DNA of 64,000 nucleotides from Moniliella sp. 'wahieum' (GCA_003971905.1 RSEE01000044.1:248001-312000), one strand, 5' to 3'; positions 1 through 58,622 are shown, counted from the stretch's first letter. Numbers and translations are program-made. Notes: generated by a model not told the origin, from the letters alone.

Positions 1-2491
1 AAAGGATAACGGAGCGGGTTCTCTGCCAGCAGGGATTGAACTGGAGGTACAGTGGAGCTTGTGGCTGTTGCGGCGAGAAGAGACAGGGAATGGTGGAAGA
101 CTGAGAAGGAACTTCTGAATTATATATACTGGTCCGGTTTCATCCGAGTCCGACAGCGCAATACAGGATGAAAACGTTGCATTGAGCGTAAGCAGTATCC
201 CGACGGGGGCGAAAGTGGGCGTCGCCTCTTCTCATATTCCCAATGAGGAAGAAGCCAGTTGAACCTACACGATGTGTGGTGAGAGGCAAGAACAAAAGGA
301 GGCCGGGAAAACTCAATGTAATGTATAGTGTGAAGGGCCTCTATAGAAGCAGAGACCTGCAATGGCGACGGCAGGTGGTATAGGCTTACGCCCCATATAC
401 CACACACCCCTTAACGGAAGAGAGCCAACGATCCCGAAAGCAGGCCCAGATATACACGTGTGAACTTCGAACGCCAACAAAAGAAGGCAAAACAGGGTAT
501 ACAAAACCCGTGACATATGTCTGCAATTGGAAGGTCCCACAACACAAGGAAGTCATCATGGCCTCTTCTTGGCCTGCCATGTAAAAATGTACCGCGGTTT
601 TTTGCCTTTGCGGGTGCATGAACGAGATAAACTGTTGGTCCTTTATACTCCGGTTTGTACCTTTGGACCACCATCGTACCTCGATGAGGAGACCTCATCG
701 ACCATTAGCCTCATCCCTCTTCCTCCATTTGTTTGCCCTTCCGCAGCCTGGGACAGTTCAGACAGCCACACCGTAGTCGCCACCACCTCCCCTCGAGGAG
801 AGCAATTATTACCCATTCCATCGAGGATGGTCAATGCGTGAGAAACAACCAACATGCTCTTTGAGCTAGACAGGCACGCGGCTCAGTGTTGAGCCACGGG
901 GTTGTGCAATGGCTCGTGCTTCTGGCCAAGGTCTTTTATGAAGGTCTTTTCAGATCCTATTCAGGCCTAGGAGCATATCGATATGGGTTCTTCTCCCGTT
1001 TGCCTTCCTTTTGTTCCATCCCGTCCCGACGGTTGCGCGGCCTGGATAACTAATGGCATGCTGAAGCGTCGATGTCCCGGCAGGTGTTTGGTTGGGTTTA
1101 AGACCACCACCATCTCACCATTGCACCAATGGTTCGATTGTGTTACCCTCTATAGCCCCCAGGTCGCGTCGTCGGCGCCCAAATCATGCATGCCTGGATA
1201 GCTGTGACTGGTGGTTGGTTGCTGGGGACCGGGGAGGGGATGCCGATGCCGATGAGGCCATGAGCATGTCACACCCATGCCTGCCATGCAGCCATGGCAT
1301 ACAACGGATGACGTTGTGTTTGTAACGCCTCATTTGTCGCTCGCATGGCCATGTGACATGTCAGTCGGATTCCATGCGTTACGCGCATGCGTTACGCGTT
1401 ACGCGTTACGTTATACGTGGTTTTGCGACTTGCTTGCCAGAGTAACTAGCACTAGCAACCAGTAGCACTGGAGCAAGTAGGTACTCAGCACGCGCTCAGC
1501 CGCGCGCGACTCGTGACACGTGACTAGTGACTTGTCACAGTGACTAGTGGCTGACTCGTGACTTGGCGACTAGTACAGCACAGCGCTCGCATGCACAACT
1601 TGCCAGCTAGTTACTAGTCCCTGGCGCTGAGCGCGCTGAGCCGGAGCAGGCCTTCAAGAATGATTAATGACCGGTGATTAATGATTAATGATTAGTGGCC
1701 GCCTCCGGTCTCCATGCCTGTTGCATCGGTCGTGTGTTCGATCAGAAACCGGCTTCGCTTGGGTTGGTGGGGGCTGGTGGGGGTCGATGCCGTCGAAGCG
1801 CGTCGAAGACGCAGAGAAAAAGAAGCCCATCCCGACATCTGCCACACGCGTGACCTCGTCACCACGTCATCAATCAATTCACAACGTCACGCGTCACGCG
1901 TCACCGGTCACATGTCAGGCCGTCAGACTCGGGCCGAAGTGCGGCAGCGTGGCTCTTTTCCGCCTCAGCTGCACTATGCCCACATGCCGCGTAGCACAGC
2001 CTCCCTATTGCGCCGAGCGCCTGGCCGTTCCTGCATCCTGCCGCCCGCTGCCGCATCTGGCGCACCGCACTGCCTCACAGCCACACACAGCCTAGATTGA
2101 TGCATGATGCATGATGATCGATGGCCGATTTTCCTGGCCAGTCCAGCCCAGCGGCCCAGCCCCCACCACGCGCCACGCCGCCTCCCCTGGCAGCACGCCT
2201 GCGTGATGAATATTGAATGGTGGTGGAGATGGGTGATCGAGTGGTTATGATTAGTGATCGATGCCGACGATGACGTACATGGTGCAGACGCGTGGCAAGG
2301 CACACTGGGTGGTGGTGGCGCGGGACGTGTGTGACGCGTGTCATGTGACATGTGACAGGTGGTGCCGAAGCTGCCGGGTGCCCAGCAGTGCGCAGCGCCC
2401 TGCGCACAGCACCTGTAGCACGGACCATGTCTGCGCGTGCGCCCTTCTTCTTCGTTCCCACCCGCCTTCTTCTCCGGCGGGACGAGGTGCT

Positions 2492-2498
2492 TATATAG
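2492..2498 (+). promoter_or_regulatory. TATA-box-like element upstream of the SYG-repeat gene
   Basis: TATATAG about 100 bp before ATG 2595, followed by a pyrimidine-rich (CTCAC)n leader at 2521-2560. Confidence 0.5.
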
Positions 2499-2594
2499 CC
2501 CCCCTCCCACACAGTTGCCTCCACCTCACCTCACCTCACCTCACCTCACCCCACCTCACCACCTGTCCACCTGACCAGTACCCGCTTCTTCATC

Positions 2595-3846: not shown

Positions 3847-4046
3847 GTCACAAATGTGCCTGGTCTTACTCTGCCCATTAAGTGACTTGTGTTTATTCCC
3901 CATATACTATGCATTGCATTGCTCGGTCGGGCGCACCATCGCGACTCAATTGTCAACGAAACAGGAAAACTTGAATTGCGTAGTAGGCCCACTGTAGAAC
4001 TGTAGAGGGCCGACCAAGGGTCCCCCTTTGAACTTGGAACCATGCA

Positions 4047-4836: not shown

Positions 4837-5813
4837 GGTGGACGTGGGATACCGAAGCGGGATGGTCGATGGTCGATGGAATGGAACCGAGGTTAAATAC
4901 GTTTTGTTGCAAGGGGCAGAACAGAGTGGGGTTACCGGTTACCGGTTACGACCAAGAAATAGGCTTCACCTTATCGACCTTTTATCGGCCTCTTCAATAG
5001 GTGCCATGCGGCGGCTTGCGGCTTTTGGCGCCAAGGCCCCTTTGGCCCCTCTTCAGTCCGATTATGTTTCGGAGCTCCAAGGGGGCGTTTCCGAAGTGTT
5101 GTGGGTTGGCGAGTCCGAAGGCGGATATCCACCTTGAAGCTCTTGAAGCTTAAAGCTTGAAGTTTGAAGCTTGATGGCCATCTCATGCGTCAGATCCACT
5201 TTCAGGCCTCGGGACTCCGGACCCCACAGGTCTGCCCCTGTTCTAGCTGGACGTGCCGGCGTACAGGGTTACACGTCACTGGACGCTGCTGGTTCTTTCC
5301 AGGCGTGACCGATTGCGATCATGTGATCAAGGACGAAACTCTTCTTTTTTACTTCCAGGCGTGCCAATCGCTCATCGATCCTAGGCATGACTCAATCAGT
5401 TGCTTGTTTTCCGTAATGCTGTTACTGTTCCCAGCAGATCTTCTCTGCCCTATGCGCTTCGCCTCTACTAACAACGCCTCACATATCATCCCTACCTCAT
5501 TTGCAAATCTTGGGTCTCGAAAATGTGAAAATGATGAGACCTGGAGTCAAAATGGTCGTCAGGGTGATGCAAACGTACCAGTGCCAGGTGCTGGTATTGG
5601 ACGCGGTCGAAACCAACTGACAACACCTACAAAGAAACCACATCAACCAGCCAGTCGCCATAAGGGGATAGGCCGCGGAACAAGGAAACGGAAATGAGAA
5701 AACAATGGAGAACTCTAGGCCTGAGAAAGGACTGAAGGGACGTTGGCCGAAATCCAGGATCCACCTGCGGTGGATCAACAAAAAAACGTTGCATGTTCTC
5801 GTGATTCCCAGGG

Positions 5814-6988: not shown

Positions 6989-9900
6989 GAGTATGGGTGG
7001 GTATGGTATGGGGGGGGGGAGAGTGCAAAGGTGAACACGAAAGCAGAAGAAGTTGGGTGCAACAAGGTAAAGTCGTTGGGCTGGTGGGCCGCGTTTTATG
7101 CGAGTACTAACTGGCCACTGGCTGCTATTGGAGGTGCCAACTCATCAGGCCGATGCTACATGCTATAGCCTCAGCCTCAGCGCCTCAGCCCCCTCGGGCA
7201 AGAGCCCGAGCGCCTGAGCGTAGGTCACCAGTCAGCTGACCCCGCTGAGAACCAGGCACGCAGTGCGGAGCTCGAGGGACGTGGCGTGGTATGGCGGGTG
7301 TGATCGGTGAGGGCGTGACGTGAAGTGATTAATCCCGATTACCTCGATGATCGATGAGATCGATGATCGATGACCGGCCACAAGTGGCCGACCCAACTCC
7401 CAGCAAAGGAATACCGCTGAACAAGTACTGAACGTTGAACATTGAACGGCTATAACGGCCGTAGGGGGTGTTCTGACCCGAAATCACAATTCGCATCACG
7501 CGGGGCTTGGCTGGTCTGGGCGGCTGCGAGGCTCGATGCCCGCGGTCGCATTAAACCTTGAACCGACGGGAGGGGCAGAATAGGACTGGTGTTCTGGTTG
7601 AACAATGTGGTTATACCGTTTGCGCGACGCTTACGTCCGGCCCACCGATGCGCCACTCAAGGTGGAACGGAGATAAAGAATGCTCCACTTACATACGCGA
7701 TCACGCGTTACATGCACACATCATGTTGCTCCACTCGTCCTCAGTTATTCATGCACCGATCTCCCTGAGCGCCTGAGCGCCTGAGCGCCTGAGCGCCGAG
7801 CACCTGAGGCTCCGGATTCACCAGCTCGCGTCCCCTATCATTGGTGCCCCTTCGACAAGCAAAAGGGCCGCGGCGGTTCATGTCGCAACTGCTCATATCG
7901 CCGCCGGGGCATTGCAACATTGCACACTGAACATTTGACAGAGCTGCCGGGTCGTCACGCACGACGGTGTGAGATACTCTTGCGGCGCCCCCACCAGCAG
8001 TCGCCAGCATTCCTCTGCGCCCCGCGGCCCATCCACAGCCCCATCGGTCGTCCCGCGTCACCGCGTCACCCCCTTTCCGCCCGATGCGGTCATCCTCCCC
8101 TGGCCACACCCCTTCTCCCGAGCGATGCGCTGAGCCATGCAGAGCCCCTCCTTCCCGCCGCGTCCCGGCTCCGACGGGGCCAGAGCCACTGAGCAAGGGC
8201 GAACGCCTCTGGATCGCGCGCTGCTGTTGCGACGTTGCTCTCTCTACCGCTGCGGCAGTCTTGATTTCGTCTGACGTGTGATTCTGTCCTGATTTGGGAA
8301 GGGGGGGGAGTGGTTACCGGTTACCGGCCCATGGATTCTTTCCACCGCAGTCTCCTCGTGCGCCTTGGACCGCGCCGCGGACTGCCGTTCAACGTGCACC
8401 TTGGTGGCCGTTTGCTTGCGTTTCGGCTTTCGGCAGCGACCGCTGTTTGGTGTTGGAGGAATTGCCGCTCAATTCGCACCTGTTCAGTTACCATCCTCCG
8501 GCCCTGCTAGCCAGCCACGTGCCATGAAAGTGACCCCCAAGGTTCCGTGCGAACCAGGGAACATGTTCGGGGAGCTTGCGATGCCGTGAGTGCATGTCGT
8601 TTCTTGGGCCATGCTTGGCCAATCTCGTCTTGCTGTGCGGGCTTTCTGAGATGGAGGGGGATAGAGGGGAACGCGTAGCTGGCATTGTTACTCTTTCATT
8701 ACCACACAGAGGGCCATCGAGCCTACGATCGGCTTGGGTGTTGTAAGGTCCCCCTCGATGATGGTCCGCTGTTCCTCCACCGTTCCTCCGCTGTCCTTCA
8801 TCACGCGACGCACAGTATCACCAGCGAATCCTCCATTGCCGTCCTCACCCCAGAGGTCCCAGCAAGCTTGCACAGATTCCACCCTGTGGGAAACAGAAGA
8901 TGTGGGGGCAAGGTAGACGATGTGCTGGGCGAGAGTGACGCGTTCATCTTTATGAAGGTTCGACGAGGCCGACGGGAGACAAAACCCCCTTGGGTAGGAA
9001 GGACGATTCGCATGGAAGGATTCTCGCTTGGGACTTTACGAGTACGTTGCGCCCCAAGCGCACTACGGGCCAACGGGCCAATGATTACATCTTACTCCAC
9101 TGTTGTTGCCCCCACGGACGCGTACATTGCGAACGCTTTACGATACAGAGCCAGCACTGTAGGAAGATGTGGGAGGATCTGCAGGTGCTACTGTAGAAGA
9201 ACTTTAACGGAGCCGACGGTTGTATTGTGGTTGATGATTGATGAGGAAGAAGCAAGGTTCAACTGTACACTTGGATTTCCTCGGTGGCAAGAAACGGTCA
9301 AAATAGGTAGCCTGTGCGGGCTACATCCGGTTTGGGAGCGAATGGCGGGCGCCAGAGCGGCCTGACTTGCTATCGGCTCCTCTGACGGTTTCCTAAACGG
9401 GTTTGGCGCCAACAAGGACAACATGCCGGATGCGCAGGTCGGTTTATATTAGGCGCACTGCTGTTTCGTTGTCCCACCCTTTAGCTCTGGGAATGAGATA
9501 TGACTACAGTACAGCTTCACCGTAGTGGAGCCCACACCGCCAATAGTAGGCTGAGGGCCCCACGTCAGTACCCTCCACGCTTGCATACTACAGAAAAATG
9601 AACAACTAACCGTCGGCTCGCCGCAAACACCCTCCTTTTGGCTTACTTTTTTGTTCACCATCCCCCCACCTGGTAGTACATAGTAGGGGCGCACCCTCGT
9701 GTCCAAGTCCGCAAGCATACGATTGATGATGTACAATAATCAACAGAACCAACATTCTGCTCTTTGCTGCTCAAGAGCGCGGCTGGGGAAGGGTACAGGT
9801 AAAGAACAAAGTTTGAGAAGACAGGAACAGAGTCGCAACATAGACATATACAAGAGAGAGGCCACACACACCAGAGTCATTGATCACGTTGACCAACGTA

Positions 9901-10029
9901 GGATCAACGTGATCAACATCAATCAACAGCATATCGAGAAGAAAAAAAAAACAGCAGGAACCAAAAAGGAAAGACGGCTTGAAGTGGTGCACACCACGTA
10001 CGACGTTCATCAACTTCATCGCATCCCGT

Positions 10030-13301: not shown

Positions 13302-14360
13302 GGCGGAAAAGGAGGAAGAGGAGGAAAGGGCGGTGGTGACGGAGCTGCGGACGGGGGAAAGACAATGTTTACAGCGAGCAAAATCGCAGCCAGCAAAAAC
13401 GCGCTCCAGGGAAGCAGACGCGTCCGAGTCGCGTGCCAGCGCGGGGTTGCTGCCGCGTGCCCAGTCGCGTCCTCGCGTCCTGCCGCGTCCGGTCGCGTCC
13501 CGCCCGCGAGTTGACGCGACGCGTTCGCGCTCGCATCTGCATCAGACATCACGCCTTCCGCCGCACGGACACTTCCCATATGCCTTGCTGGACGGGATGG
13601 ATGATGCCTGCCATCTCGGCACTAGGGTTGCTGACCCGGAGCTCGGAACTGGGTCCCGCGTTTTGCGGAGGTGAGGCGCACCGAAACGTTCAATATTCAA
13701 TGTGTTTCGTTTTCAAATTTCACCAGCCCATCTCTCCCATGGGGTCAACAGGTCACAGTCCCAGTCGTCCTCAGCCAGTCGCTTGTCTATCTCCTTGGCC
13801 AGCTGATACGCTGGCCTCAGGCCCCATCGTCCTACCGTAATGCGCGCCTGGCCTTCCCGGCCCACCACCCACCCAATATCGGAGGCCAACAGGCGACGCG
13901 CACTGCATGCGGTCCTCTATGCCGCTGTGCTGATGACAAGATAGTCTCCCATGCTCTGTGCCGGTTGAGCAGGTAGGTAGTCGTCTAGGGTACTACAGCA
14001 TGGTCGAGCTCCCGCCCCCACCCCACTCTGGCAGCCATTGCTGTTTCACGGCCACCCGCCGAGCTCTTCTCATATAAGCATCAAGCATGCCACACATCGA
14101 AAGCCTGATAACGTAGAGAGAGGAAAAAGGTATTTGGTTGGATAAACGAGAAAGAAAGGACTTTTGGTTCCACGTGTTTGGAGGTGCAAGGCCGGTGCCG
14201 AGCTAGGCCACAACAGTGTGGGCTGGAAACGGAACAGAAGCAAACGACCCATGCAGGCCAGAAACAAAAACGCTAGAGAGGGACCAGTGGAACCAGAAAA
14301 GAGCGAATAAACGGGTAGTAAAAAAAAAAAAACACCGCCAAGGCGGCCGCGACCAGCGCC

Positions 14361-15526: not shown

Positions 15527-16560
15527 AGCCAGCTCACCAGGGGCGCAGGGGGGAGCGTGATGGTGATGGTGGTGGTGGTGCTGGTGGCGGGAGCGGGCGG
15601 GGGTCGGGTGAAGGTGAGCGGTGCGATTGGGTGGTGCAGGTGGGTGCGACTGGGCGCCTGCGCCGGCGTGCGCTTGCTTGTGGGACCGCGCAGGAGGGGG
15701 CAGGGGGGCAGTGGGCGGACGATCACACACCTTCTGGAACCCCTCTGCAGCCAGCCTGCGTCGGCCTGCATCCCAGCTGCATCCCCTGCATCATCGCCTG
15801 CATCGCCCTGGCAGCGGCTGCCCACTGGCCGCAGTGCCCACGCGCCCTGCCAGCCACGGGCCAGCCTGCCCCGCCGCGTGCGCCGCATTCTTCGGGGCAA
15901 GCCGATCGGCTTACGTACACGCGTGGCTTGGCCCTCCGACCATTGATCATCGATCGGCGTCCCGCGTCACGCGTCCCGCGCCACTGCTCCCAGGCGGCGC
16001 TGCAGGATGCGTGCACCAGCACGCACCACAGTGCGTGCAGCCAGCCACAGCACAAACAGAAGCGCATGGCGTGCAGTTGGCTGATCCTGTGCGGGTGATC
16101 GAATGCTGCATGTGACATGTGATGAGCGAGGTGATGTCGGCAGGTTGCCCCCTGGCATGTCCCCGCCGCCCATACGGTGGTGTCGATGGGTACACACCGG
16201 CATCGGATCTCGACAGGAGGAGATAGTTGACTATAGGGATCGCACTGCCGTCCCCGCTTCCGGGGGTGGCGCGGCCATTGCGCCCAGAAACCTTCCCAAG
16301 AAGAACGGGAACACTGTCGCGAGTGGCAAGCCAGCGCCGCCGACTGCTCGCGCCGCCCTGCGGGGTAAACCGATGGGGCGGAACGGACGGGCGGAAACGG
16401 GGTGGTACGCCACACTCGGGGTGAGTCTTCAAGCTTCAATGTTGCAGTGTAACGGTGACGCGCCATTCGGCCCAGGTCGGCGCCGCAACGGCCGGCGGAT
16501 GGTGGTTGGAGGCCACGAGCAGCACCTACGCTTCCTCGGCGGCGGTGCCGAGCGCTCCCG

Positions 16561-20845: not shown

Positions 20846-21405
20846 TGTCCCGCTGCATGGGCCTAGCGGCGTTACCGCTTGCCTCCTGAGTCTCAATACT
20901 GAGGCTCAACATTCAGTACTCAGTCTGGGCCTGATATAACCCAAGTTTCCAACCCTCCTCTTACTTTTGCACTTTTGCACCGTTTTGCTCGTTGTTTGCT
21001 TATCGTTTTGGGTTTGTGTTGTGCCACGGTTGAATGTTGAATGTGGAGTGTTGGCTGCCGGTCGCCGTGAGCGACGGCGGTCTTGTATCGAGAATACCTT
21101 AGCATCGTTCTTGCACCAGGATTGCGGATCATCGATACCTCGAGTAGTGTAAATAGTACGTAGTAGTGCTCCGCGTTCGACGAAGGGCTTCGCAGATGGG
21201 CGTTTCGTCGGAGACACCCAAAGTGTACTAGTAGTAATGGGCCGTATTTGTCAGGCTGGATGCCCTGGGGGTTGAGCTACCAGGCACACACACGCACACA
21301 TATCGGACACAAGAAAGTAGTAAAACAGTGCCGGTCACAGCACAGAACAACGGAACTAGCATGCATCTTGATGTGGCCGTGACCCCGAGTAGAAATTGGC
21401 GGCAA

Positions 21406-22302: not shown

Positions 22303-22654
22303 GCTGGAGATGGAGGTGGCGAGGGAAGGGCAAGGACACGGCATGATCAAGACAACCGCTGCCAGGCCAAGGGAAAAGGGCACAGTTGCAATATTGCAAC
22401 TCATGTTGCTCACGTAAGGGCGTCATTAACGAACGTTGAACGTCTGGGTGGCAGAGTTGACGCGTGACGCATCGGTGACGTCCATGATCACGTGCCTTGC
22501 GGCCGCGCTCGCGAGTCGGAAAGTAGACTTATGTAATCCTGCCCAGGCCCGTTCCCCCCCCCCCCAGCATCGACGCGCCCACCATCCGGCCCATCCTCCC
22601 TTGGCGTCGTACCGAGTAGGTTGCTGACCATGCTCCGCCCGAACGACACCGGAC

Positions 22655-26447: not shown

Positions 26448-28842
26448 AGAGTGCTGGAAGCACGCCTGAGCAGCAGTCGTGATGCTTATTCTTATTAGGA
26501 TTGATTATTGGGAAGCCAATGGGCGCGAACCTTGCTTCACCTTCACCTATGCCGGCCTAACCTTTGCCAATGTTATGGTGAGGCGCCAGTGGCCTGATAG
26601 AGAGTATGTGTGAGCTGGATGATCGATAGGCCGGAAGCTGGAACCATAGCTGAGCGCTGAGCGAGCGCGCCGTGCGCGATCGCATGATATGCAGGCATAC
26701 ATTGACAGAGCGATGCGATCGATGCCCCCATGCTCCACCAACTATATAGTTACCCTGGTGAGTACGTGGAGTACGACTGAATATACGGATCGGCGCAAGA
26801 GGAGATCATGACGCTTGGAGTCGGAATGGGTCCGACGTTCAGACCGCGTGGGGAGAGACAAATGTGGCGCGGGGCTCACGGTGAGCGCTGAGCCACCCTG
26901 GGAAAGTAAACGCGCTTAGATCTACAGAGGCTCTGCGACAATCACTTGCAGCGTGCATAACCACCTGCGGACATACTGAGACATCCGCAGCCGCTTCAAC
27001 TCGCTTGTGCCGCAGTAGCAGGCAGTAGCCCAGTATGCAAGTCACTTCGTGACGAAGTGACCGGTGACCGGGGTGACCAGGCCAGTGTTAGTTACTGGCA
27101 GCGACCCCAGCGGTCATGCGCCCCAATCCAAAACCGCGTTCAAATATGCGCAAAACCTCAAACCTCGACCAGTCACTACTCAGTAGAACCAATTCAATGT
27201 GCAAGCGGCGCGTGGCGCGTGGAGCATGAAGCGTGGAGGCGCCCTGGTACCACGTAGCCCACAGCTCTTCGTCAGCGAGGGCTTAGATGTATAGTGCATT
27301 ACACGCTTTTCATGTGTGGTGTGGCAGTGCAGGAAGCATGGGGCTAAGCCTGTGGCTAAGCACTAACGTGTAAATAGCCTGCAGCATGGTGGCAAGGAAC
27401 ACAGCTCTACCATGTCGGGGCGTTGGGGCAGTGCTGGCGGTGCACTGTGGTGCGCGCCGGGATGTCTGGGGCTGGGTTAAGTTACAGCGCAACTGCTTCA
27501 ACCCACTTGATCAACATCATCTTCAAACGCTTCATCGATCCATTTGATCTTTTCCGTATCAAATGATCCAACAGGTCAAATAGTTGCGGAATGGTCGCGT
27601 GCACATGGTCGATGATCATAGAGCACTATACTGCTCAAGGGCTCACTATGGCCACGTAGTCATTAGTCCCTCGCAGTCAGCAAGTCTGTCCCCGGCCTTC
27701 TGTTTATGCAGTTCCCTCGCAGGAGAGACCGGACTAGGGACGGTTGGTGGAAGAGGTCACCGCCGTCAGCGTCAGCGTCGCCGGCGCGTCAGCAGGATCA
27801 AGCGATCAGGCCCTCAGGCCTCAGGCCGGTCAGGCGGTCAGGGGGCGTCGGTGGCCGTGGCTCCTTTTTTGGAATGGATCATCGACCTTCGATCAGATGG
27901 ATCATCCATATCCGGCCGAGAGCTGGTGCTATTCCCGGCCGCTGCAAGCTGACCTCAGCGGGCGCGCGGGGCAGGTGGCGAGTGTTCCAGGGCTATCACC
28001 CTCGCCTTCCGATTCCGGCCAAGGCAGGCCAAGGTTCTCTCCATATCCCCGGGCGGCCGCAGGAGGCCACTTTGTGCGCCTCGCGTTGCCGGATCTTACA
28101 TCTCACATCTCAGATCTCCCATCTCCCATCTCGTCCACGCGCCCTCGTCCCCTGCGTGACTGGCTCCGTACTCAACTCGGCACTGGCGCCCACCCAGGCC
28201 CGGCCAGCCCAGCGCATATCCCCGCTCGGCCTGTAACATGTAAGCGGGACTGGGCACCCCTCAGGCCTCAGGTAGGGTTAGCGACGCGGCGCCAGTGCGG
28301 GCAGGTGCCATGCACGGGCCTGTTGCCTGCGCCCTCCCATGCCACATGTCACAGCAGGCACTGGCTCGGGACGGGGAGGCGGACAGGAACACCGTGGGGG
28401 TTGGGGGGAGGTGCTGGGCAGTGTGCGCCGGGATGGAATGGGCGAGTGCATCAACGAGGAGATGAGTGGGATGGGCGGGATGGCCGATGGGATTGGATGG
28501 GAGGGGACGGGAGGAGAGGCGAGGCGAGGACAAGAGGAGGGTGACCGGTGAGGGCAAGAGAGGAGAGAGATCCAACACGACGGGCGGCGCACGATGGGGC
28601 ACAGCGCCGTGTGCCGGCAGCAGGCATGGCGCCAGCGCGGCGGACGGCAGCCGATCGGACTTGTGGTCCGTGCAGCCCTGGGCGTCGGGTACGTACACTG
28701 CCCCCGCCCCCTCGGCGTTGCAGGGGCCGCCCGGGCTTCGGTTTAAATGATCCTTCTCCGCCCGCTCATGCAGGGTCTCTGTCCTTCCCTCCACCACCAC
28801 AGCGTTCGTCCTGTTCGCTCCCGCTGCCCCTGCTTCCCCATC

Positions 28843-30473: not shown

Positions 30474-31117
30474 GAGGTCGCGTAGTCAGCGGGTCGCTTC
30501 CTTCTTGCCTAAGGTGCGTGGAACATGAGATGACTTGGTTGCCATTGTACGCTCTCGGCAGCCCCTATTCTCTCATTGGGCTGTCCTGCGTAGTTCCTGC
30601 GTAGTTCCTGTAGCATGCAATAGTCACTAGGGGAACAACGATTATGTGATGGTGGTCGATGATCCATGATGCATGAAGGTTGAACGTGTTTGAGCGAGCT
30701 GCGAGAGGCTCCAAGTTGAAGTGTAGAGATGTAACTTCCAGGGCACATTAGCGTGAGCGCATGGCGGCGGCTAATGTTAATGATGGCCTGCTTCGGCCGG
30801 TCGGACAGGTTATGACTTCCCTCGAAGTGTTGGTCTTGACAGTGATTATAGTTCCTCCAGTGACTAGCTAGTGACTAGCCGTAAGCAGATGCAGCCGACG
30901 AGGGCGAGGGAAGGACAACTCGGCGAAGCAGCCCTACGACATATGCAGCCGGAACGGTGGCCTCAAACTATGTTCAGTCCCCAGCAGCTGCTATAGACAT
31001 GCTGACGATGCCATGGCGCCAACCTTCTACACAATCCTGGGCCCCGAAACCAAACCATACGTAAACGTTAAACATACAGCCGATGCAATTTGAGTTAGGT
31101 AGGGGTGGGGAAGAGGT

Positions 31118-32495: not shown

Positions 32496-33819
32496 GGTGA
32501 CGATGTGGTGGTGGTGGTGGGCGCGGCTGGTGCCCAAGCGTGCCGGCGCGTCTGGGCTTTGGGCTGGGCGGGCGCTGGTTGCTGTCAGGCCGGAGACAGC
32601 CGTTGCGTACGCGGCCCAACCATTCCGCCCGTCGTTCCGCTGGCCCAGGTCCCAGATCCCAGAGCGCTGCCAATTGAAATTGCAGACGCAGGAAGGTTGG
32701 TACTTGGTACCCCAATATAATCGCACGCCACAGCGGACACACTTAATATATCTTTTGGATTTTTGGAGGTGGGCCCAGTGGCCCGAACTCTCACCTGCTG
32801 GTATCCTACGCCCGCTGCCTTGGCCCTCACCATTGTTGGTCTCCTTTCCGGAGGATACCCAGAGGCCAAAGGGCTGCATGGAATCCAACTGGTCGGAAAA
32901 AGATGTACGCAATGTGCTGGATGGGCATATGATCATAGGCATATGCCCCGAAGTTTCTGAATTCATCCTGGGGGAAGCACATAGTGGAGTGGGGCTATAC
33001 TTATTGTGCCACATTGCTTCGATGGCTATGTTCTTGTGCCTGGAAGAGTGACCGTCGTTTGCGTATAAGGGGAGGTTGAAGGGCTGCTGGGCGGGACAAA
33101 CTCCACCTATAGTAGATGCCTTCTACCCTTAGGCAATCCACAACCTTCTGCAAAAAGGACGTTACTCAGCCATCAAGCAAAATGATGTGCGTTGCCCAAA
33201 CCGCCTGCTTCATTGGCCGAGGATGTCATGCACAGGGCGGAACAAAGGGGTTTGATCGCTCTCACTATACCCATCGAGGAGAGTCTCGGATGGAACTTCG
33301 ACGGAGGGGGGGATCAAAAAAGCCTTCAGTGGGCTGGGCGCTGATGGACGGCAGAATACCGTGACCCCCCCGCCCATCCTAGGTCCAAGGTGTGGCCTTT
33401 GTCCCTCGTGTGCAGATGATAATCATTTGTACGCAGAGATATAACCATCAGGCTTCACAACTCTTCTTCATTGCTCTCTGAGATGACATCTTTCTGTTAT
33501 TAGATGCCCTCTGTCCTGCAGCATCCCACTAAGGTTAAAGCATCTCACCATCCACAGATAACATAGTTTCCGTACACAAGCGTTGGGATCTCACCTATCC
33601 TAACCGTCTGACCTTATATGCGACACTGTGGGAGACCAATCCACCGAAGGGCGTGTGTATTCGTATAGGGAGGAGAAATACGCAGTAGGGTTGCTCCACC
33701 CTAATGCTAGGGTTGCCGTTTTGATTGTTAGAAAAAATTTGCCGCGAGCCCGTCGGTTTAGCGCGTTCAGCATGCTGGGTTGCACCACTACCATCGTTCC
33801 TCTGGCCTCATCTCGCGCC

Positions 33820-39919: not shown

Positions 39920-40913
39920 GACGAGGGCAGAGTGGTGGTGTGGACACGGTCAGTAATACTACGTGAGTACAGGCAGCCGAAAAATTGTATATCGGGACCA
40001 CTACCTCCTATTCCGCCTCCGCTCTTGTGCCCCCATCCACGAAAACTACGCTGCACACGTCCGAATGCTTGGCGATGGCGTTTACATAGCACGAGGTGAG
40101 GCCGGTGAGGTAAATAACACGCTAACTCGCAGTGGTGTAACATGTAACGTTGCCAATTCCTCTTTGCTGTTCAGCGCCAGCTCGCTACAGAAAAGACGAC
40201 TGGGGCTGGTACATGTTACGCGCCAGATGCGCGCAAGATGGCCGGGAGTGCCCGGTGATCCGATTACTCGATTACGCGTTACGCGTTACGCGAGTCCAAG
40301 TCACGCATCATGCACCACCGGTCACCCGGAACGTGTCACGTGACTTTTATCACTAGATCTGGAATGGCCCCCACCGGAAATTTGAAAGGGGAGATAAACC
40401 GGAGATTGGGCAAGCGAAGTAAGTAGGAGATAATGACGTTGCGATGGCTGGGCGTGGCCGGGGGGGCGCCGAGAGGAGGCGAGTAATCGGGACCATCGAT
40501 CATCATGCATCATGCATCATCGACAATCGCAATTAATCATCGAAACGCACCACGAGCACCTGCTTGATAAGGACGTACGGGACGGTACACAGGTAACTAA
40601 GTACTACTTGACAGTTAAGCTTCAACTCGACGAAAGAGCCAAGGGGAGCGAAACGTCAACAGCTTGCGTTAAAGCACCCACGTCGCCGTGTCAATGACAG
40701 GTCATCCCCCAACACATCAATGATGCTCATCATGCCCCGTAGCACAACAATCGACAGAAGACGTGATTGATTATCCAGGATTCAGGATTCAGTATTTGCC
40801 CAGCGCGCTTCCAGCGGTCCAGCCGCATTCTTATCCGCCCGGGCCCCTTTTTCTACTCCCTGCGCCGGCCACACCACCATCCTCCCTCTCCTCCAACACC
40901 CCGTTGCACCCCA

Positions 40914-43015: not shown

Positions 43016-44730
43016 CGCGTACCTCCTCGGACCCACAAGTGGCAGAGATGAAACTGGAAAGAAGAGGGCGGGCCAATGGAAGCCATGTGGGTTTGGCCTG
43101 AGCGCTCATTGAGTTCAACGAACTCATCCAGTGACGGAAAGGCCACATTCCACACATGGTTGCACCCCCCCTCCCCCAACAAGCAGGCAAAAGCTCACCG
43201 GGCTCGCATGGCCCCGTATCGAGTATCTCGCTCTGTCTCTTGCTCAGTATGCTGTGTGAATATTGAATAGCAATCCTATTTCCAAAGTGGAAGCTTTGAA
43301 GCTACGCTGGAGATCAGACTTGGTCAAGCCCGCTGCATAATGGTAACCGGTAAAAAGAGTAGGACCAGAGGTGGAGGAGCGATGATCGATAGATCGATGG
43401 ATCGATGGATCAAAGGATCGATGGATCGAAGGATCGTGGGCGTTAGGCCTTAGGCTCAGGCTGGGCAGTGGCTCCAGGGCCTTAGGCTCAGGCGCAGTCG
43501 CTAGTCGAGGGAGGCAAAAACGGGGGCAAAATGCAGGGCGGGGCAAAATGCAGGGCGGGGCACTGGAGGGCCCTGGCGGGCCCATGCCTTCCGTCTTAGA
43601 TCGTAGGGAGCACATCGATGATCGAGGATCGATGATCGATGGTCGACGAGACAGCCGACGACTGAGATCGATGAGACCATCATGCATCACACATCAGAAT
43701 GCGTAACTAGTAACTGCCAGAACCACCCTGTGGTACAAGATGCCCGAGCCAGAAGACTATACCCTGCAAGGATAGATACGCGAGTCAGACCAGGCCAGAC
43801 CCACCCCAAAGCACTGAGGACATTGATGAGATTGATGAGAACGGGTCCGAGCCAGGAAAGGAGTGAACCAGTGCGAGGCATGGATTGCCTGTGACAAAGT
43901 GGCATGTGAGCGTGGGCACACCCAACGACGCGGAGGCGGGGGTGCATCGAGCATCCTTTTTTGCCTTGCACAGCCCCGGCGTCAAGCTTCAAACTTCAAA
44001 CTTCAAGCGAGACCGGCGAGTCCAGCGAGATGGGATGCCCCCACGAATCGGTAAGGAAGAGCGCAGGAGTTGGACAACGAGGAGCGACGGTGGAGGAAGA
44101 CACAAAACCCGTACGCAATGGACAAGGCAGAGCTGTAACAGCTGACACGAGAGACAAGACGCAATAAGAGACAAGAAACAAGACATAAGACACACGAGAG
44201 AGACGAGAGACGAAAGACGAGAGACGAGGGACGAGGGACGAGAGAAAGGCAATATGGGCACCGAACGCGGTAGGGTAGGGTGAGACCAAGAGAACGGCCT
44301 TGAGGGAAAGGAAGGAGAACCGCGAGGGCCGGGGGGGGGGGGGGGGGAAGGCACGCATGGGGGAATAAAGTGGCGGGTCAGAGGGGAGTGGGAGTGCTGT
44401 AACGAAAGAAATCTCTCTGCACCGTGGGAGAAGGAGCGTTGTCGACCCACTTGGGGCCGAGGAAGAAAAGCGAATGTGAGCGAGAAGGGCAGGTATCAGG
44501 CCGAACTGGGGCGGCAATAGGTATAAAGAAGAGCGAAGAGGAAAACGGCGCAAGACGCACGGCGCACAGCGCACGGGCGCGAAACGCAAATGCGAAACGC
44601 TTGGCTTGGTGGTCGGCACCGCCTGTATAGTGCTGTTGCATCGGGGTCAACCCAGGCCCAGCACTATACTAGGTCGTTTGCGACCAACAAATAAGAAAGA
44701 GAAAGAAACCCCGGGAGTTGCAACGTTGCT

Positions 44731-45700: not shown

Positions 45701-46798
45701 GAGGAGGGAGGCAGAGGCTGGTTGGTGACTGGAGGGCGGGAAATGCGTGGCGGTCACGCGTCAACCCGACGTGGAAGCGTGAAGCGCTCGGCAGGCGGAG
45801 TGAGCTGTCCGTGCGCACAGCGGCGCCATGCGAGGGGATGCGCCGGACAGGTGATTGTGATGCGTGAGACGCAGGCGATGGATGAGATCGAGCAGACCCT
45901 GAGATCTGCGATCTGAGACCGCCTGACATCTGAGATCCCGCACAGGCAGGCAGTGTGGCATGGTGGACGTGTGATGCATGTGATGCCCGCCGATGGAACT
46001 TTGGCATGGCAGGTCGGTGGTGTCGATGATGGTCCACCGTCGATGGGCGAGCCTACAAGGAGCGGTGCGGGGGGGGGCATGGCATGGAACGTGCGACCGA
46101 GTAGGCAGGGCGATTGAATCGGCGGCCCGATTCGGCGGGCGTGTCCGCCTCTTGGCTGGCTCCGGGTGGATATAGGGGGTGTTGGATCGGGTCGATGGGT
46201 CGATGGGGCTGTGCGTAGACCGCCGTGTGCTCCGCGCCACGCCGACTGTCTCTAGCGTGGCGCCCCCCAGAACACGTGTGGTTCGTATGGCCCATGGGCT
46301 CGTGAGGCCCACGGCAGCCCCGGCGGTGGTCGGCTCTCCTGGTTGTCATCCATATCCACTACCCAACTGCTCCCCGTTTTTGTCTCTGTCTCGGGTGCAT
46401 AACTAGACCGTTTGCTAGGGTGGAGGCATGTGTGGTCCCCGGCTCAGGCGCAGTCGGGAGCTAGTCACTGCCAGGTCACCGGCGAGCCTCAGCGCCTCGA
46501 CCTCGGCCTCGGCCTCTTTTATAACGCCACTGGGGTACTATGTTCGTACTTACTTGGAGCTACGAGTTCTGTAACGCAGGGTGGCGGCTATGTTGCCGTT
46601 ACCCTGGTGGCTGCTGTTGCATCTTCCATCTTGCCATCGCACCGACTCACCACGTCATGACGCCACGAGGTTGGGCTCGGGACAAGCGAAGCCCGTCCTC
46701 TTTTAAAATAGCGCGCATTGGAGAAGCTTATTATAATGTGCCAACACGCAAGCGTTGAATCCACGATGCTTCTTCCTCTTCTCTTCGACTCTCTTCCG

Positions 46799-47007: not shown

Positions 47008-47153
47008 GAGCTACAATCTGAAGCACCCCACTGGCGCAAAGGATCAATACTCAGCACCACCATCGCGCCACCGTCACCCACACACCACCCCAACGCCACC
47101 ATCGGCACCACACCAACCAATTCAAAAAAAAAACAAAGGAAAAATCAGCCACC

Positions 47154-51832: not shown

Positions 51833-52038
51833 CCACCAGTGGTCTAGAGCCCATCGGCCTTCAGTGACACGTGGCCCGATCCACACAGTGCACCGGGGCA
51901 GTGAGTTCCGACCCTTCCACGGGTTTCCACTGGCCTCCAGGCCAGGAGCCTATCAAGGCCCATAGCTCTAGCTCTCCTTAGCTCTTGAATGCCATCTCCA
52001 TCGACCATCGCCAGCATCGCTAGCTAGGCCTGTGGACA
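51827..52038 (+). repeat. 3' LTR (212 bp)
   Basis: TGTTGACC..GTGGACA, followed by TSD TTCCG. Confidence 0.97.
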
Positions 52039-52378
52039 TTCCGGCCCCATCGAGCCCTGTCGAACATCGACGGTAGAAAAATCAGAAAGCAGGCAGTTGA
52101 TGGTGTGTATGCATTGCACATGAGCTACAGAGGTTACAGAATATTCATGTCATCCTGCGGAAGGAATATTGGAAGGATTGCACTGGAAAAGGATCCGACG
52201 GGCTTGGGCTACCAGCGCCACTACCCTAGTGTGGCCGGCGACATCGACCTTCGGCCATCGGCTATCAGTAAAATATACACATTTCGCCCACATATATATG
52301 GTGCATGGACCATCAACCATCGGCCATCGGCCATTAACGTAGTTCAACGTTCAACGTTCAACGTTTAACGTTCAACCG

Positions 52379-54147: not shown

Positions 54148-54690
54148 AATCGGTGATATTATTTCGTCTTTCCAGCGTGGAAGGGTTCCAGCGTGGAACG
54201 GTGGCCGGTGGAACGGTGGCTAAGGTGGCGATGGGGGGAACGGTGGCTACGGTGGCTAAGGTGGCGACGTGGAACGGTGACAAAGGTGGCGACGCAGCAC
54301 CAAGCTGGGGCGAAGCACCAGCCGACCGGGCCGTAGGCCGGTGGTCCTCCTCGTGTGTTACATCTCTATGTTGCATCCATATCATTGACAGAGCTTAAGG
54401 CTGGGACAGGGAAACGCTGCGTCTAAACCGAGCCGTTCATCTTGCGGGAAGAGTTACTTGATAGCGCCACCAATTATAAGATTGGAGGAATCGTCATGCA
54501 CTTTTACATCAGCTGACCGTGCCACGTTCCACGCCACCGCAGTCAGCGCGTCAGCACGAATCGGTGATGTTTTTTACGGTGGCGAAGGGGAACGGTGACT
54601 AAGGTGGCGAAGGGGGAACGGTGGCTAAGGTGGTGACGCAGCAGCTGACCGGGCCGTAGGCCCGGTGGTCTCCTCGTGTTACATGTTACA
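54148..54690. repeat. GGAACGGTGGCTAAGGTGGCGA-type minisatellite inside a local duplication
   Basis: Two related blocks (about 54148-54364 and 54559-54684), both starting AATCGGTGAT and ending GACCGGGCCGTAGGCC..GGTGGTC..TCCTCGTG..TTACAT; an inverted motif copy at about 54517-54534. Confidence 0.8.
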
Positions 54691-55095
54691 GCTTATCGAT
54701 CTTATCGACAAGCGGGACGAGCGACGAGCAACGAGAGGGAGATGAACGGTCACTAGCACTAGGTCACTTACATGTTGCATAGTTCTTGCATGACAATATT
54801 TTCTTCGCGCGAGCGACCCTGCCCTCAGGGACTACAGCGGCCTCACGTCGCAGGGCAGCACAAGCATGCTCTCCAACACCATGCTTCTGATTTTGGGGTG
54901 ATGATCGATGAAACAGTGGCCCCAAGCCTCAATTTGAGGTGGTACAGTCACTTCTCGCTCCGCAAGTCTCAGCTCGATCCCTGTATGACCCCTGGTGAAG
55001 CGACCACACAGCTGCATCCCTTTTACGCGAACTGCATACCCCCGCCCACCACCTTTCCCCCACATCTTCTGTTGAGCCAGTACTGCCACTCCGGA

Positions 55096-56671
55096 ATGCC
55101 TCCCTCCCGCACCAGAAGGATGTCCCTAACATCTTGGACCAGGAACGTCGGTCTCCGCCCGAGGGACACAGGACGTATCAAGCCTAAGCCGGAGCCCGGT
55201 GGAGACTGCTGTCAAAGTTGAAGAGTCGACCCCTGAAGAACCACTTGGGCACCAGTGGGGCCCACAGCGGCTCCGAAGGGCGGGGGAGAGGGACGAGAGG
55301 AGAAGAAACCGAATGTTGTAGGCCCTCCTTCCTCTTCCCGGGCTCCCGTACCGATTCATTTAAGGCTTTTGGATCGACTGAACCTGCCGCTGCAGAAACG
55401 TGACGGCGATGGACAACGATGAAGATGCGCTGGATGTTACCGTTGACACCGTCGTCCCCCGCACTACAGATGCCGATGAGAGTCTCGTTAATCAGGAGGA
55501 ATTTCCTTGTATTCCCCCTGATCTGTCCCTTTCGCCCGCGGAGGGTCTTATTTCATGTTACCGCTCGTTACACGGCAACTTGTATCTCTCCAAGGGCAGT
55601 GACATCACTCCATGAGGACAACAAGAAACTTCGGGAGCTCTTTGTGTCAAACAGTGCGAAGCAAGAATCATTCGCCAGGGGCTTTACCATGGCCAACCCA
55701 CGCCAGTATTTCGAACGCTTGCTGGAGCACAACAAGGTCAGGACCATCACCTCTCCCAGCATACCCCACAGGATTAATACTTTAAAAGTACTGACATTTT
55801 CTCTCTCTTTACATGAACGGATCGCTACTAGCAGAAATGGTGCAAAGAGCTCGCGTATGGGTTTTTTGCATCCTGAGAGCAGGGCCTTCAACAACAAAGA
55901 TTTAGGCTGTTCTTCCGTCGGCAACTGGCTTGTTCTCCTCGAGGTCTTGAGGAGTTCAACTTTGACGCGGGACAACTCCTGGCTCACATCGGTCGAGAAA
56001 AACAGTTTATCCAAGTCCTGTTGACGGTGTTCCGAACCCGATCTGGTCCACCATGCGTCGTCGCATTTTCGATTTGGCGGTACGTTGTGCAATATCGGAT
56101 ATGACCTTGACGTTGTTGCTTGCAGTCAGAGATATTGACTTCGGATCATTTCAGCCCATGACTTTGGATGCATCGAACCAGGAGGACTGGATGCGCCAAG
56201 CTTCGTCATGGATAGGAAAGATTTGGGGGGTATAGGGATTAACACCCCAAACTGGGCGTACCATGGTGTCTCGTCGGAAAGCTGTGAACCTCCTTCTGGC
56301 TGCAGCGATTTATAAGGAAATGTCGGGGCGTGCAGCCAGACTCAACCCCCACCAGGGGCAGGGATCCAGGATCTCGGGACAACCAGGTCGAAATCGGCGA
56401 GGAGTTTGATGAGCTGCCAGAGGAAGACCCACTGCACAACGAGCCACGCATCCGGAAAGGGCATCAGAGGACGAAAACAATGGACGCGTGGGCGGAGATC
56501 CAAACATTGATTGACAATGAACCCCGTATCATGGAGAAGTGCCGTGCAAACAGTGGTATTACCAAGACGGTGGAATGGGTCGAAGGCATTTCTCCTCTCC
56601 TTCGCTTTCCTCCTTCAGCAGCTATTTCAAGGGCTCACCAACCTCCTCTCCCCTACGAAAGCTCACTGTAA
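55096..56671 (+). CDS. hypothetical protein (fragmented, probably spliced)
   Basis: Series of protein-like fragments (MDNDEDALDVTVD.., HEDNKKLRELFVSN.., EIGEEFDELPEEDP..) on one strand; intron-like segment after 55737. Confidence 0.35.
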
Positions 56672-58622
56672 GTTGATTGCGAAGCCCCATTGGTTTGGAG
56701 GAGAAGATGGCCATACGAAACATGGTGGGTGTGAGGGCCTGGCTGCTGAAGGGGCATTGATTTTCAAGCGCAACGTGTTCGGCCGCGATGGCGAAAGTTG
56801 ATGTGGCCGCAGGCCAGAATGGACACCCTTTCGCTACCCATAATATAGCTAAAGAGAAGATGCATTTAATCGAATAGGGAAAACATCCCACTTCTCGAAA
56901 GATGCGCCTATACACTTGGAATACAGTGCTAACCGTCCCCGCCCCTACACATTATGGAAATAACGCATGCTTTTTGTCGAAGCCTCTGGCGTGGCTTTTT
57001 CCCACGTAATGCGAGGATGTCAACTTGGGATTAAACAGAGGAAATCGGCGACGAACGCATGGGATTTTCCTGCTATATGACCCTGGCGCAACACGAGGCC
57101 CACCGAGGTTAAGCTAATACTTCTGTGACAGCGAGTTTGAGATAAAAATGGCAGTTTGGATGCAGTTGGGCAGCATCCGACATGATATTTTAAACCAGCA
57201 AGTTGTGCCGGGAACTTGTCCCAACAGATAAACGTTAAACCCTGCAGCCGTGGTCTGACAATCGAGACAATCATTAGTCATGCTAGTCATGGCAGTTCGT
57301 CGTCACGCCTCATTCTTATGTATATAGCCTCTGTGGCAGTTAGTATGTGTCAATGCCCAATAGTTCGGAACTCCAAACGAAGCATAGCGGGAAGTCTCTG
57401 GGTGCTAGCGAAGGCTACTGACCCCCAGTCTCTCCAAAAAAAGGGCCTCATTCCGGTGCCTTCGATGACGAATCTCTCGATCATCGATCATCGATCATCG
57501 ATCACAAGGTCGAAAGCTTCACTTGTTGAGCTTAATTCATCGATCATCGACGTGCCAAGCCAAGTGTCTGTGGCTTCCATCCGAACGTTTCGCGGTGCAG
57601 TGTATGTAAGTACTATATAAGTAAAGCTCTTGCGGACGTTACGCGCGTTAATACGCGTTACGCGCGTTTTACGGTTGAGTACGTTGAGGAAATGAAGATC
57701 AAATCTTCTTGCGCCTGTGCCATCAAGGCAACTAAGCTAGAGGGGAGCGGAGCACTGACACTTGGAGCCGCTGAGAGAAGGCCGAGAGGCTTAAAGCTTA
57801 AAGCTTAAAAGTGGAAGTGTTGTTCTTCACGCCCCACGGAAGAGAAGTAACTACGTGTTATAATTAGGCCCAGGAGAAAATCGACGATCGGGTCTTGAAG
57901 CTTTTGAAGGTTGAATTCAGGTGGAACACGTTGAACGTTGATTACGTGGATTAATGAGATTGACTCGAAGCTGGTTTATCAGTTCGATCATTCCTGAGGC
58001 CTGATCGTCGCGCAGGATATAACGAAGAGGTGAGGCGGTGAGGAGGCCATGGATTCCACCAAACTGAGCTTTTGGGGTGCATCCGGCCCAGAGACAAGCC
58101 TGGGTGCCCGTACTTATCCAATTCTTTCTCCCACCATTAACATCACATTTGCGTTCGGTCATCTTTCACTGAAACGCCGCTTGCAGGACCTCTCTATACG
58201 CGATGTCTATATAAGCATGACCACAGGATCATTTGAAGTAAATGCGTTCTTATTCTTGAAAAAATGGATGGGTGTGCGCCCGAATCATGTTGCACAAGAA
58301 GGGTTATGGCTGGTGGAGTACTCCCCAGGCATTCCTATTCACGATGGGACAGAGAAGCCGGAAGCGTAGATGCCGTGGCCTCTCAGCGATAGAGGGGCCG
58401 GAGGTGATAGAAACATCCGAGTGGGTGCAAAGATTGAACAAAAAAAGCTAGGTCCGTGCATAAAAGATGAAGCACAGTCGAAGGAAAAACAGTGTGAGAT
58501 CCTAAGTTGTTGGCGGTCCAGATGCCACAGTGCCATGAAGAGGGCCAATAAGATAGGTAATGCCGTTTCCGGGTCAACGTTACAACGCCCTGCACCGCCG
58601 AATAAGCTGTGGTACCGGAACC

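Follow-up and report, generated by a model that had tools for sequence, protein, structure and literature searches.

Palindromic T-N-A arrays with a 7-bp period in the intergenic DNA of a basidiomycete: candidate footprints of a cut-and-paste transposon

Introduction

The P nucleotides of V(D)J joints and the footprints of hAT transposons are palindromes that derive from DNA hairpins opened off-centre, and such footprints are textbook material. The present study concerns a stretch of 64,000 nucleotides from the fungus Moniliella sp. 'wahieum' (RSEE01000044.1, 248001-312000), referred to here as the window and numbered from its first base, whose intergenic DNA carries short arrays of T-N-A triplets repeated every 7 bp around 4-bp palindromes of variable sequence. 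The anatomy of these arrays points to hairpin-ended breaks as their probable source and possibly to a cut-and-paste transposon as the agent. The transposases of hAT, Transib and MULE elements, together with RAG, make hairpins in the flanking DNA; these are then opened by host enzymes, Artemis among them, and sealed by end joining, often with a footprint as the result (PMC5499845). For Ac/Ds in Candida albicans, the footprints are described as short deletions or as palindromic P-nucleotide insertions of at most 3 nt, with joints centred on the complement of the base beside the element; 28 footprint types were counted in 128 events, two products making up 53 of the 128 (PMC5873905). In rice, a plain duplication was left by only 8 of 94 excisions (PMC4423477).

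Basidiomycetes harbor DNA transposons with a 7-bp target-site duplication, namely hAT7 in rust fungi and Kyakuja in Agaricomycotina, neither of which is reported from Ustilaginomycotina-like fungi in the source paper (PMC12730594). Abr1 of Agaricus bisporus is listed as a hAT-type element (PMC7473861, PMC10051438). Its likeness to the agent considered here lies in its being a basidiomycete class II element. Abr1 is also said to make a 7-bp duplication at a consensus target. Heptanucleotide repeats are familiar from bacteria as well, among them the STRR repeats of cyanobacteria. Repeats of TAACTGA are described in Beggiatoaceae (PMC4679880). Like the arrays of the window, these bacterial repeats are intergenic 7-bp tandem repeats; unlike them, they are prokaryotic and have a fixed unit, whereas here the unit varies freely, with nothing but T-N-A and the symmetry held constant.

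Statistics of the T-N-A Pattern

A preliminary description of this DNA, made from the bare sequence, had noted TNA triplets at a spacing of exactly 7 bp with variable 4-bp palindromes between them, and both features are borne out against a shuffled background. The TNA autocorrelation at lag 7 is 192 against 118.7±10.8 in 50 dinucleotide shuffles (z 6.8), and among lags 1-21 it alone stands out, all others having |z| of at most 2.7 (lag 2 is impossible). A palindromic N4 spacer is present in 73 of these 192 TNA-N4-TNA pairs, compared with 7.4±2.9 in 100 dinucleotide shuffles (maximum 18); the middle base is identical in 127 pairs (35 in shuffles), and 62 pairs combine the palindromic spacer with the same N (2.2 in shuffles). 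The enrichment is confined to TNA, as the remaining 15 X-N-Y triplet classes have 4.5-8.1% palindromic spacers where chance gives 6.25%, and it is confined to four-base spacers, since palindromes of 2 or 6 bases between TNA triplets are not enriched (31/101 and 2/129, respectively).

The pairs chain into 55 arrays, of which 44 have one spacer, seven have two, one has three and three have four. Array density is about 0.73 per kb, with clusters of eight arrays in 1354-2355 and eight in 43099-43991. Fourteen of the 16 possible 4-bp palindromes serve as spacers, and catg is among the four commonest per array (7 arrays each). The same count of 14 had been given before, with a slightly different membership: GATC had been included on the strength of position 45900, where the second triplet is TGC, and AATT, which does occur, had been left out, so that the missing kinds are GATC and TATA. 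A second listed position, 43633, likewise fails (its second triplet is TGG), and the other 25 of the 27 listed show TNA-palindrome-TNA. The earlier view that register and symmetry are conserved rather than sequence, and that the arrays do not form one microsatellite family, is supported. There are 43 exact period-7 repeats of at least 14 bp (3.6 expected), and 15 that reach 2.5 copies or more (0.03 expected). TNA lies within 29 of the 43 (21% in shuffles), and in 23 the unit is an odd palindrome, always TNA-centred (9.6% in shuffles); the 14 runs without TNA compare with about 3 expected.

The coding reference for the location of the arrays consisted of open reading frames (ORFs) supported by Pfam, which cover 23% of the window and contain 20% of all TNA sites in it. 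Simple ORF cover was rejected as too permissive (86% of the window) and periodicity of G+C at third codon positions as too weak, and the gene models are therefore crude. None of the 62 same-N palindromic pairs falls in a Pfam-supported ORF, where 12.5 would be expected (P ~3e-5 when 47 arrays are counted as independent), in keeping with the earlier impression that coding exons are free of arrays. Three of the 11 different-N palindromic pairs do fall in such ORFs: one lies in the Copia ORF, and the other two, in the gene for the proteasome ATPase, are perfect palindromes of 10 bp. These look like chance. As far as crude gene models allow, arrays lie 5' of genes, for example at 7344-8323 upstream of an oxidoreductase gene and at 40138-40624 between divergent genes, and also between convergent 3' ends (4861-5174, 30667).

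A control was drawn from metagenomes, in which one 21-base array used as a query matched at least 119 stretches; flanks were taken for 80, with 54 loci of at least 2.5 kb. Among the matches listed, only 3 of the 54 loci reach the array density of the window, all of them short and with the seed array counted, palindromic spacers other than that of the seed are absent in most, and no relative of this genome was recovered. Given that so few loci attain this density and that other spacers are mostly absent from them, the grammar is not tied to the heptamer; it is specific to this genome or lineage and no general property of heptamer-bearing DNA.

Anatomy of the Arrays

The composition of the spacers follows a simple rule, by which the outermost spacer consists of the adjoining flank dinucleotide and its reverse complement. 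Array-level tests of this flank rule used the 47 arrays with the same N throughout, and 44 of these keep it (19 on the left, 16 on the right and 9 on both sides), where rough arithmetic gives about 6 by chance. The same holds at the level of pairs. Among the 127 same-N pairs at lag 7, 56 are palindromic and keep the flank rule (left 20, right 17, both 19), and 6 are palindromic without flank support (1.6 expected), so that 56 of 62 palindromic same-N pairs keep it, left-type and right-type products being equally common (20 versus 17). Six of the 127 are plain duplications that join wx to ab, where the target is written ab-TNA-wx, and four of these six are other registers of palindromic arrays; a palindromic arm of one base occurs in none of the 127.

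Beyond the outermost triplets of the 47 arrays, identity at period 7 reaches 0.69 in the first outward position and 0.65 in the second, then drops to 0.33-0.37 and lower from the third, where the background is 0.28. Every one of the 37 two-triplet arrays shows a flank match. In 34 of them two or more bases match on one side or on both, and the total seen most often is exactly two, confined to a single side. When triplet and flank matches are added up, period-7 identity falls short of 7 bases in 25 of the 37, and these are consequently not tandem duplications of a 7-mer. The canonical unit is instead a 12-mer, TNAwx-x'w'-TNAwx or its mirror (primes denoting complements), that is, a 5-bp direct repeat with a two-base reverse-complement filler. 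Perfect copies of it number 75 over both strands, compared with 0.2 in shuffles. Copies of this 12-base motif with 0, 1, 2 and 3 violations exceed their number in shuffles by 75, 87, 121 and 133, respectively, a roughly flat spectrum as expected of steady formation and neutral decay rather than of a single burst.

An unbiased scan for direct repeats of k bases with m bases reverse-complementary to the repeat end found enrichment chiefly at k+m=7, the (5,2) form occurring 63 and 65 times against about 4. The full form [abTNAwx]x'w'[abTNAwx] is also enriched, with 8 and 9 occurrences against 0.2, and the counts for an 8-bp repeat with the two-base filler are 0 and 1, from which it follows that the duplicated block has a ceiling of 7 bp. 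The largest duplicated block is thus 7 bp long and symmetric about N. Of the 128 (5,2) motifs on both strands, 75 have TNA as the triplet, and several others are one substitution off (TGG, TTG, CCA). Period 7 dominates among the products, which have an even centre and conserve length; odd-centred products like those of Ac are weakly represented (6 versus 1.2 at T=8; 13 versus 4.5 at T=7), and a period-11 product stays below the listing threshold of 4.

These features bear on both explanations offered in the preliminary description. The first, that the arrays are sites for a symmetric or oligomeric chromatin factor, is not supported by a spacer that is free and templated by one flank, as one-sided templating is a property of the making of the DNA and not of its binding. 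The second, a fold-back or template-switch process at T-N-A, survives in part. The palindromic filler fits nucleotides of the hairpin (P) type, but the triplets are direct copies, N being repeated unchanged in 62 of the 73 palindromic pairs and complementary in 5 of the remaining 11, and a simple fold-back copy is therefore excluded.

Two pairs of loci share more than their arrays. The segments 2098-2139 and 40478-40519, 38 kb apart and in inverted orientation, have 42 nt in common at 83% identity, and the match runs beyond the tgca array into tcga-TGG-cc-gatt; a similar inverted pair is formed by 7429-7461 and 52328-52360. Judging from these alignments, some scars may have been copied along with their surroundings or may stem from a shared older repeat.

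A Proposed Hairpin Model and Its Rivals

A palindromic extension of a DNA end with no loop is the signature of a hairpin opened off-centre, and from the anatomy and the statistics we infer a break, hairpins, their opening 2 nt from the tip and a transposon. It is probable that the arrays are repair scars of hairpin-type staggered breaks. Whether they were, in addition, left by the excision of a cut-and-paste DNA transposon that makes a 7-bp duplication around a central T-N-A is a closer question, on which the balance tilts slightly in favor. In the proposed scheme a putative element would insert with the 7-bp target-site duplication ab-TNA-wx, and on its excision both flanks would be sealed as hairpins exactly at the element boundary. 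A host nuclease would open each hairpin 2 nt 3' of the tip and so leave a self-complementary 3' overhang of 4 nt on either side, wxx'w' at the left end and b'a'ab at the right end; the right top strand would then start at TNAwx, with ab now in the bottom-strand overhang, and the left side would end in TNAwx-x'w'. End joining would retain one overhang and drop the other, to yield ab-TNA-wx-x'w'-TNA-wx when the left is kept and ab-TNA-b'a'-ab-TNA-wx when the right is kept, each target gaining 7 bp. A second hit on the symmetric x'w'-TNA-wx within a scar would produce two identical cohesive overhangs, and their annealing could make homogeneous arrays grow, a growth to which slippage may add in long arrays. 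By our reading of the array list, 9 of the 11 multi-unit arrays are fully consistent with such repeated hits.

This scheme would give the exact gain of 7 bp, the free palindromic spacer and the conserved N, and likewise the one-sided two-base flank identity, the parity of left and right products and the 7-bp ceiling on the duplicated block. Retention of one or both bases of ab would give the periods of 8 and 9 bp, which are rarer (7764-7808 and 1624-1641 are examples), and the period-11 product, in which both overhangs are kept, would be absent because 3' overhangs cannot be filled in.

Several observations weigh against a transposon of this kind. Within the window, no element with terminal inverted repeats and a duplication of 3, 5, 7, 8 or 9 bp was found (two weak matches only), a general repeat search of the 64 kb returned no inverted-repeat element with a duplication, and the 235 ORFs of at least 110 aa include no transposase besides the Copia polyprotein. 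The scars are also far more uniform than published footprints, with a 2-nt arm in 56 pairs, a 1-nt arm in 0 and a plain duplication in about 2. Three spacers match neither flank (ccgg at 1668, ccgg at 1901 and catg at 1908), all in the two mixed arrays that start at 1661 and 1887, which lie 230 bp apart in inverted orientation and have a ccgg unit in common; they could be accounted for by the loss of flank sequence in a later event or by copying from one of these inverted arrays to the other. The array density demands a very active or long-lived agent, although rough arithmetic suggests that some 1e-5 to 1e-4 hops per genome per generation would be enough, a rate possible for an active low-copy cut-and-paste family. 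Lastly, the even-centred palindromes do not fit the classical Ac type of hAT element in detail, and if the agent is a hAT element it would have to nick exactly at the boundary, as RAG or MULE do.

The same anatomy would fit equally well with an endogenous nuclease, such as a domesticated hairpin-forming transposase, that cuts T-N-A in open intergenic DNA with no mobile element involved and leaves scars as a by-product. The extremely uniform outcome, the lack of an element in 64 kb, the array density and a flat decay spectrum suggestive of a long-lasting process would all suit it. We nevertheless regard it as rather unlikely, as we know of no chemistry that makes a 7-bp duplication without an inserted element. 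The transposases considered here cut their target by strand transfer from the element ends and form flank hairpins only at element boundaries, as textbooks and PMC5499845 have it, and low-copy cut-and-paste elements can accumulate scars, so that absence from one window is weak evidence. Ordinary heptamer microsatellites, in which slippage duplicates a 7-bp unit and palindromic units that form hairpins are favored, also seem an unlikely source. They would account for the excess of exact period-7 repeats, including those without TNA, and for arrays of three to five identical units, and the five-triplet acgt array, folded as single-stranded DNA, does better than 200 of 200 shuffles (z -3.5). Yet the other three arrays of the four tested show no folding advantage over shuffles (z -0.8 to -1.4), and two full units are found only in multi-unit arrays, being missing from the 25 two-triplet arrays noted above. 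Decay by point mutation would erode triplets and palindrome as fast as the flanks, whereas identity falls abruptly after two bases, and both the one-flank templating and the specificity for TNA remain unexplained by slippage.

The remaining alternatives are weaker still. Selected binding sites for a symmetric or oligomeric factor (a general regulatory factor, a nucleosome positioning element or an insulator) would be intergenic and could be clustered in some spacers, as the arrays are in 1354-2355 and 43099-43991, and some hexamers, such as ACGCGT, may resemble known motif shapes. A conserved recognition sequence is lacking, however, with only T and A constant; binding offers no reason for templating by one flank, the flat decay spectrum gives no sign of maintenance by purifying selection, and exclusion from coding DNA is expected of any 7-bp insertion, all of which makes this explanation quite improbable. 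Elements with a 3-bp TNA duplication would leave two bases of each inverted terminus and thereby automatically a 4-bp palindrome, and TNA (TWA) is the 3-bp target of PIF/Harbinger, so that remnants of PIF/Harbinger-like or CACTA-like elements come to mind. That catg is a common spacer might also speak for them, since many termini read CA..TG (PMC12730594). Their spacers should ignore the flanks, though, whereas the flank rule is kept in 44 of 47 arrays and all 37 two-triplet arrays have flank matches; the 14 spacers would need about 14 terminus families in 64 kb, and 7-bp direct repeats with a two-base filler are not predicted. The flank rule and the flank matches largely refute this candidate, which we hold to be very improbable. 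An artefact of assembly or basecalling is scarcely credible for a structure that is templated by unique flank bases, specific to TNA and absent from coding DNA, and to our knowledge no mode of sequencing error produces anything like it.

Relation to Known Transposons

Set beside flank-hairpin transposons and V(D)J joints, the scars resemble them in that both copies of the duplication are kept, palindromes are templated by the flank, bases are gained on one side and lost on the other, and the arms are short, as they are in fungi. The joints retain direct repeats of 5-7 bp as target duplications do in flank-hairpin footprints, and P-type nucleotides templated by the flank are present in the proportions given above. 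They differ from Ac/Ds, whose joints are heterogeneous, in an arm that is always 2 nt, in even-centred products, in their occurrence on a genome scale, in the formation of arrays and in the lack of an element in the window; the 8-bp duplication and odd-centred footprints of the classical hAT elements Ac and Hermes are replaced here by 7 bp and an even centre. A 7-bp duplication, judged from the scars alone and their maximal block, is what hAT7 and Kyakuja have, in the same phylum, and the superfamily of hAT7 has flank-hairpin chemistry. The window holds no such transposase, and the text and searched supplement of PMC12730594 give no target consensus.

Implications

Transposon footprints and P nucleotides are known. 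For dense, stereotyped 7-bp palindromic scars that are centred on T-N-A and build arrays we found no earlier account, and in the literature consulted there was no description of TNA-centred 7-bp palindromic arrays or of stereotyped footprints across a genome in fungi. Heptamer tracts in Ustilago maydis that the preliminary description had mentioned find only an anecdotal echo, in a U. maydis primer with AATCGTG twice in tandem (PMC2219887), and no paper on such tracts was found.

If the transposon reading is right, three of the element's properties can be read from its scars, namely a 7-bp duplication, a target centred on T-N-A and hairpins formed at the exact boundary and opened 2 nt off the tip. 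As the 64 kb contain some 47 perfect scars, with decayed ones in similar excess, a sizeable share of the intergenic sequence would then be the product of a single mutational process. Such scars would show, in a clean natural setting, how hairpins are opened and ends joined in a basidiomycete, and would offer a marker of transposon activity in genomes annotated as poor in repeats. Tandem repeats make up 4-11% of genomes of smut-related fungi (PMC4824034), and the process could explain part of that high content. A more far-reaching proposal, which we put forward as speculative and unlikely, is that breaks with a 7-nt stagger and hairpin ends arise continuously at T-N-A in the open intergenic DNA of this lineage through a transposase-like nuclease, either domesticated or carried by an element of very low copy number. 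Were this true, stereotyped scars of +7 bp would contribute in a major way to the writing and lengthening of intergenic DNA, and they would create hexamer palindromes and stop triplets de novo as later raw material for regulatory sites. On the transposon reading there is also a warning here: symmetric arrays of this sort are not to be taken for a grammar of protein binding, as they look more like a mutational record.

Feature Coordinates

Table 1. Arrays, period variants and related repeats of the window. Strand is given as "." throughout; the flank column names the side on which the flank rule is kept.
Feature	Position	Flank	Remark
TTA array cgcg/cgcg	1392..1408	both	
TGA ctag TGA	1521..1530	right	within longer degenerate run 1508-1549
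TGA array ttaa/ccgg/ttaa/ttaa	1661..1691		ccgg unit unexplained by flanks
TCA array cgcg/cgcg/ccgg/catg, then ggccg-TCA	1887..1917		ccgg and catg unexplained by flanks
TGA tgca TGA tgca TGA	2098..2114	right	
TGA atat TGA	2207..2216	right	
TGA catg TGA	2346..2355	both	
TTA ccgg TTA ccgg TTA	4932..4948	left	
TGA/TAA agct array	5144..5174		one mutated unit (agtt)
Two TGA tcga TGA scars	7348..7373	left each	9-bp step between them
TGA acgt TGA	7429..7438	right	
TTA ccgg TTA	8314..8323	both	
TCA atat TCA and TCA aatt TCA	13690..13722	right; left	
TGA catg TGA	16113..16122	left	
TCA agct TCA	16429..16438	left	
TCA gtac TCA	20913..20922	right	
TGA cgcg TGA	22458..22467	right	
TGA gcgc TGA	26651..26660	both	
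TGA gcgc TGA	26882..26891	right	
TGA ccgg TGA	27058..27067	right	followed by 9-bp step
TCA ggcc TCA	27814..27842		followed by 8-bp-period TCA units
TAA catg TAA and TCA ggcc TCA	28234..28270	left; both	
TGA ccgg TGA	28542..28551	left	
TGA tgca TGA	30667..30676	left	
TAA acgt TAA	31062..31071	right	
TAA catg TAA	40138..40147	left	
TTA cgcg TTA cgcg TTA	40272..40288	right	
TCA tgca TCA tgca TCA	40503..40519	left	
TGA atat TGA	43257..43266	right	
TAA ccgg TAA	43344..43353	left	
TTA ggcc TTA	43443..43452	right	
TCA tgca TCA and TAA ctag TAA	43680..43713	left; right	
TCA agct TCA	43982..44006		followed by plain 7-bp duplication (ct-TCA-aa) x3
TCA cgcg TCA	45754..45763		without flank support
TCA/TTA acgt array, 4 spacers	52344..52374		folding z -3.5
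TTA catg TTA	54679..54688	both	followed by 9-bp-period pair at 54693
TGA tcga TGA	54902..54911	left	
TAA acgt TAA	57229..57238	right	
TCA tcga x3 TCA	57481..57504	left	
TCA tcga TCA	57537..57546	right	
TAA agct TAA agct TAA	57792..57808	left	
TGA acgt TGA and TGA ggcc TGA	57932..58004	left each	
8-bp-period variant cc-TGA-gc + gc + c	7764..7808		4-6 copies; palindromic dinucleotide kept plus 1 base of next copy
9-bp-period variant [gc TGA gc] gc [gc TGA gc]	1624..1641		complete 7-bp repeat with 2 palindromic bases added
9-bp-period variant [ct TGA ag] ct [ct TGA ag]	5133..5150		
Plain 7-bp duplication gt-TGA-at x2	21029..21044		no palindrome
TGG tcga x2.7	4861..4879		TGG in place of TNA, like architecture
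TTG gtac TTG gt	32697..32710		TTG in place of TNA, like architecture

Beside several of the 7-bp scars lies an array of 8-bp period at 43376-43436, with the unit GGATCGAT in 7.8 copies, which shares the ATCGAT core and has two extra bases.

Genes and Other Repeats of the Window

The window has 58% G+C and a eukaryotic gene content. An importin-beta exon, 6-phosphogluconate dehydrogenase, a proteasomal AAA ATPase and a G-beta WD40 protein are accompanied by an oxidoreductase of the old-yellow-enzyme type, an amidase, a pseudouridine synthase, a PHD finger protein and a Copia-type retrotransposon; a tRNA scan of the window found none. For the importin-beta exon the top matches have 68% and 65% identity, the closest named ones being from Exobasidium rhododendri and Tilletia horrida (43%), followed by other Basidiomycota. 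On these matches the DNA is assigned to a basidiomycete, probably close to Ustilaginomycotina.

Scar density varies greatly from one intergenic spacer to the next. The region 10000-18000 combines 62-66% G+C with weak codon periodicity and has few scars despite real genes (PHD finger, G-beta). Homopolymer runs of 12-17 G or C bases at 17066-17077, 22554-22565, 44331-44347 and 45657-45671 sit in stretches rich in G+C with few or no scars.

The Copia-type long terminal repeat (LTR) retrotransposon occupies 46799-52038 and consists of a single long ORF (integrase, RVT_2) between LTRs of about 210 bp that differ by single-base indels only. As the LTRs are nearly identical and a 5-bp duplication, TTCCG, is present at 46794-46798 and 52039-52043, the insertion looks recent. 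An ORF of 428 aa at 2711-3997 is made up of repeats of 24-27 nt, with a 24-nt consensus unit in about 10-22 copies, and has very strong codon periodicity; its product is of low complexity, rich in Asn, Ser, Tyr and Gly, and has no Pfam match. Six direct repeats of 28 nt occur at 54210-54642 in two blocks about 320 bp apart, and a 48-nt repeat is present at 54309-54356 and again at 54632-54679, lying with the 28-nt family just upstream of the TTA catg TTA scar.

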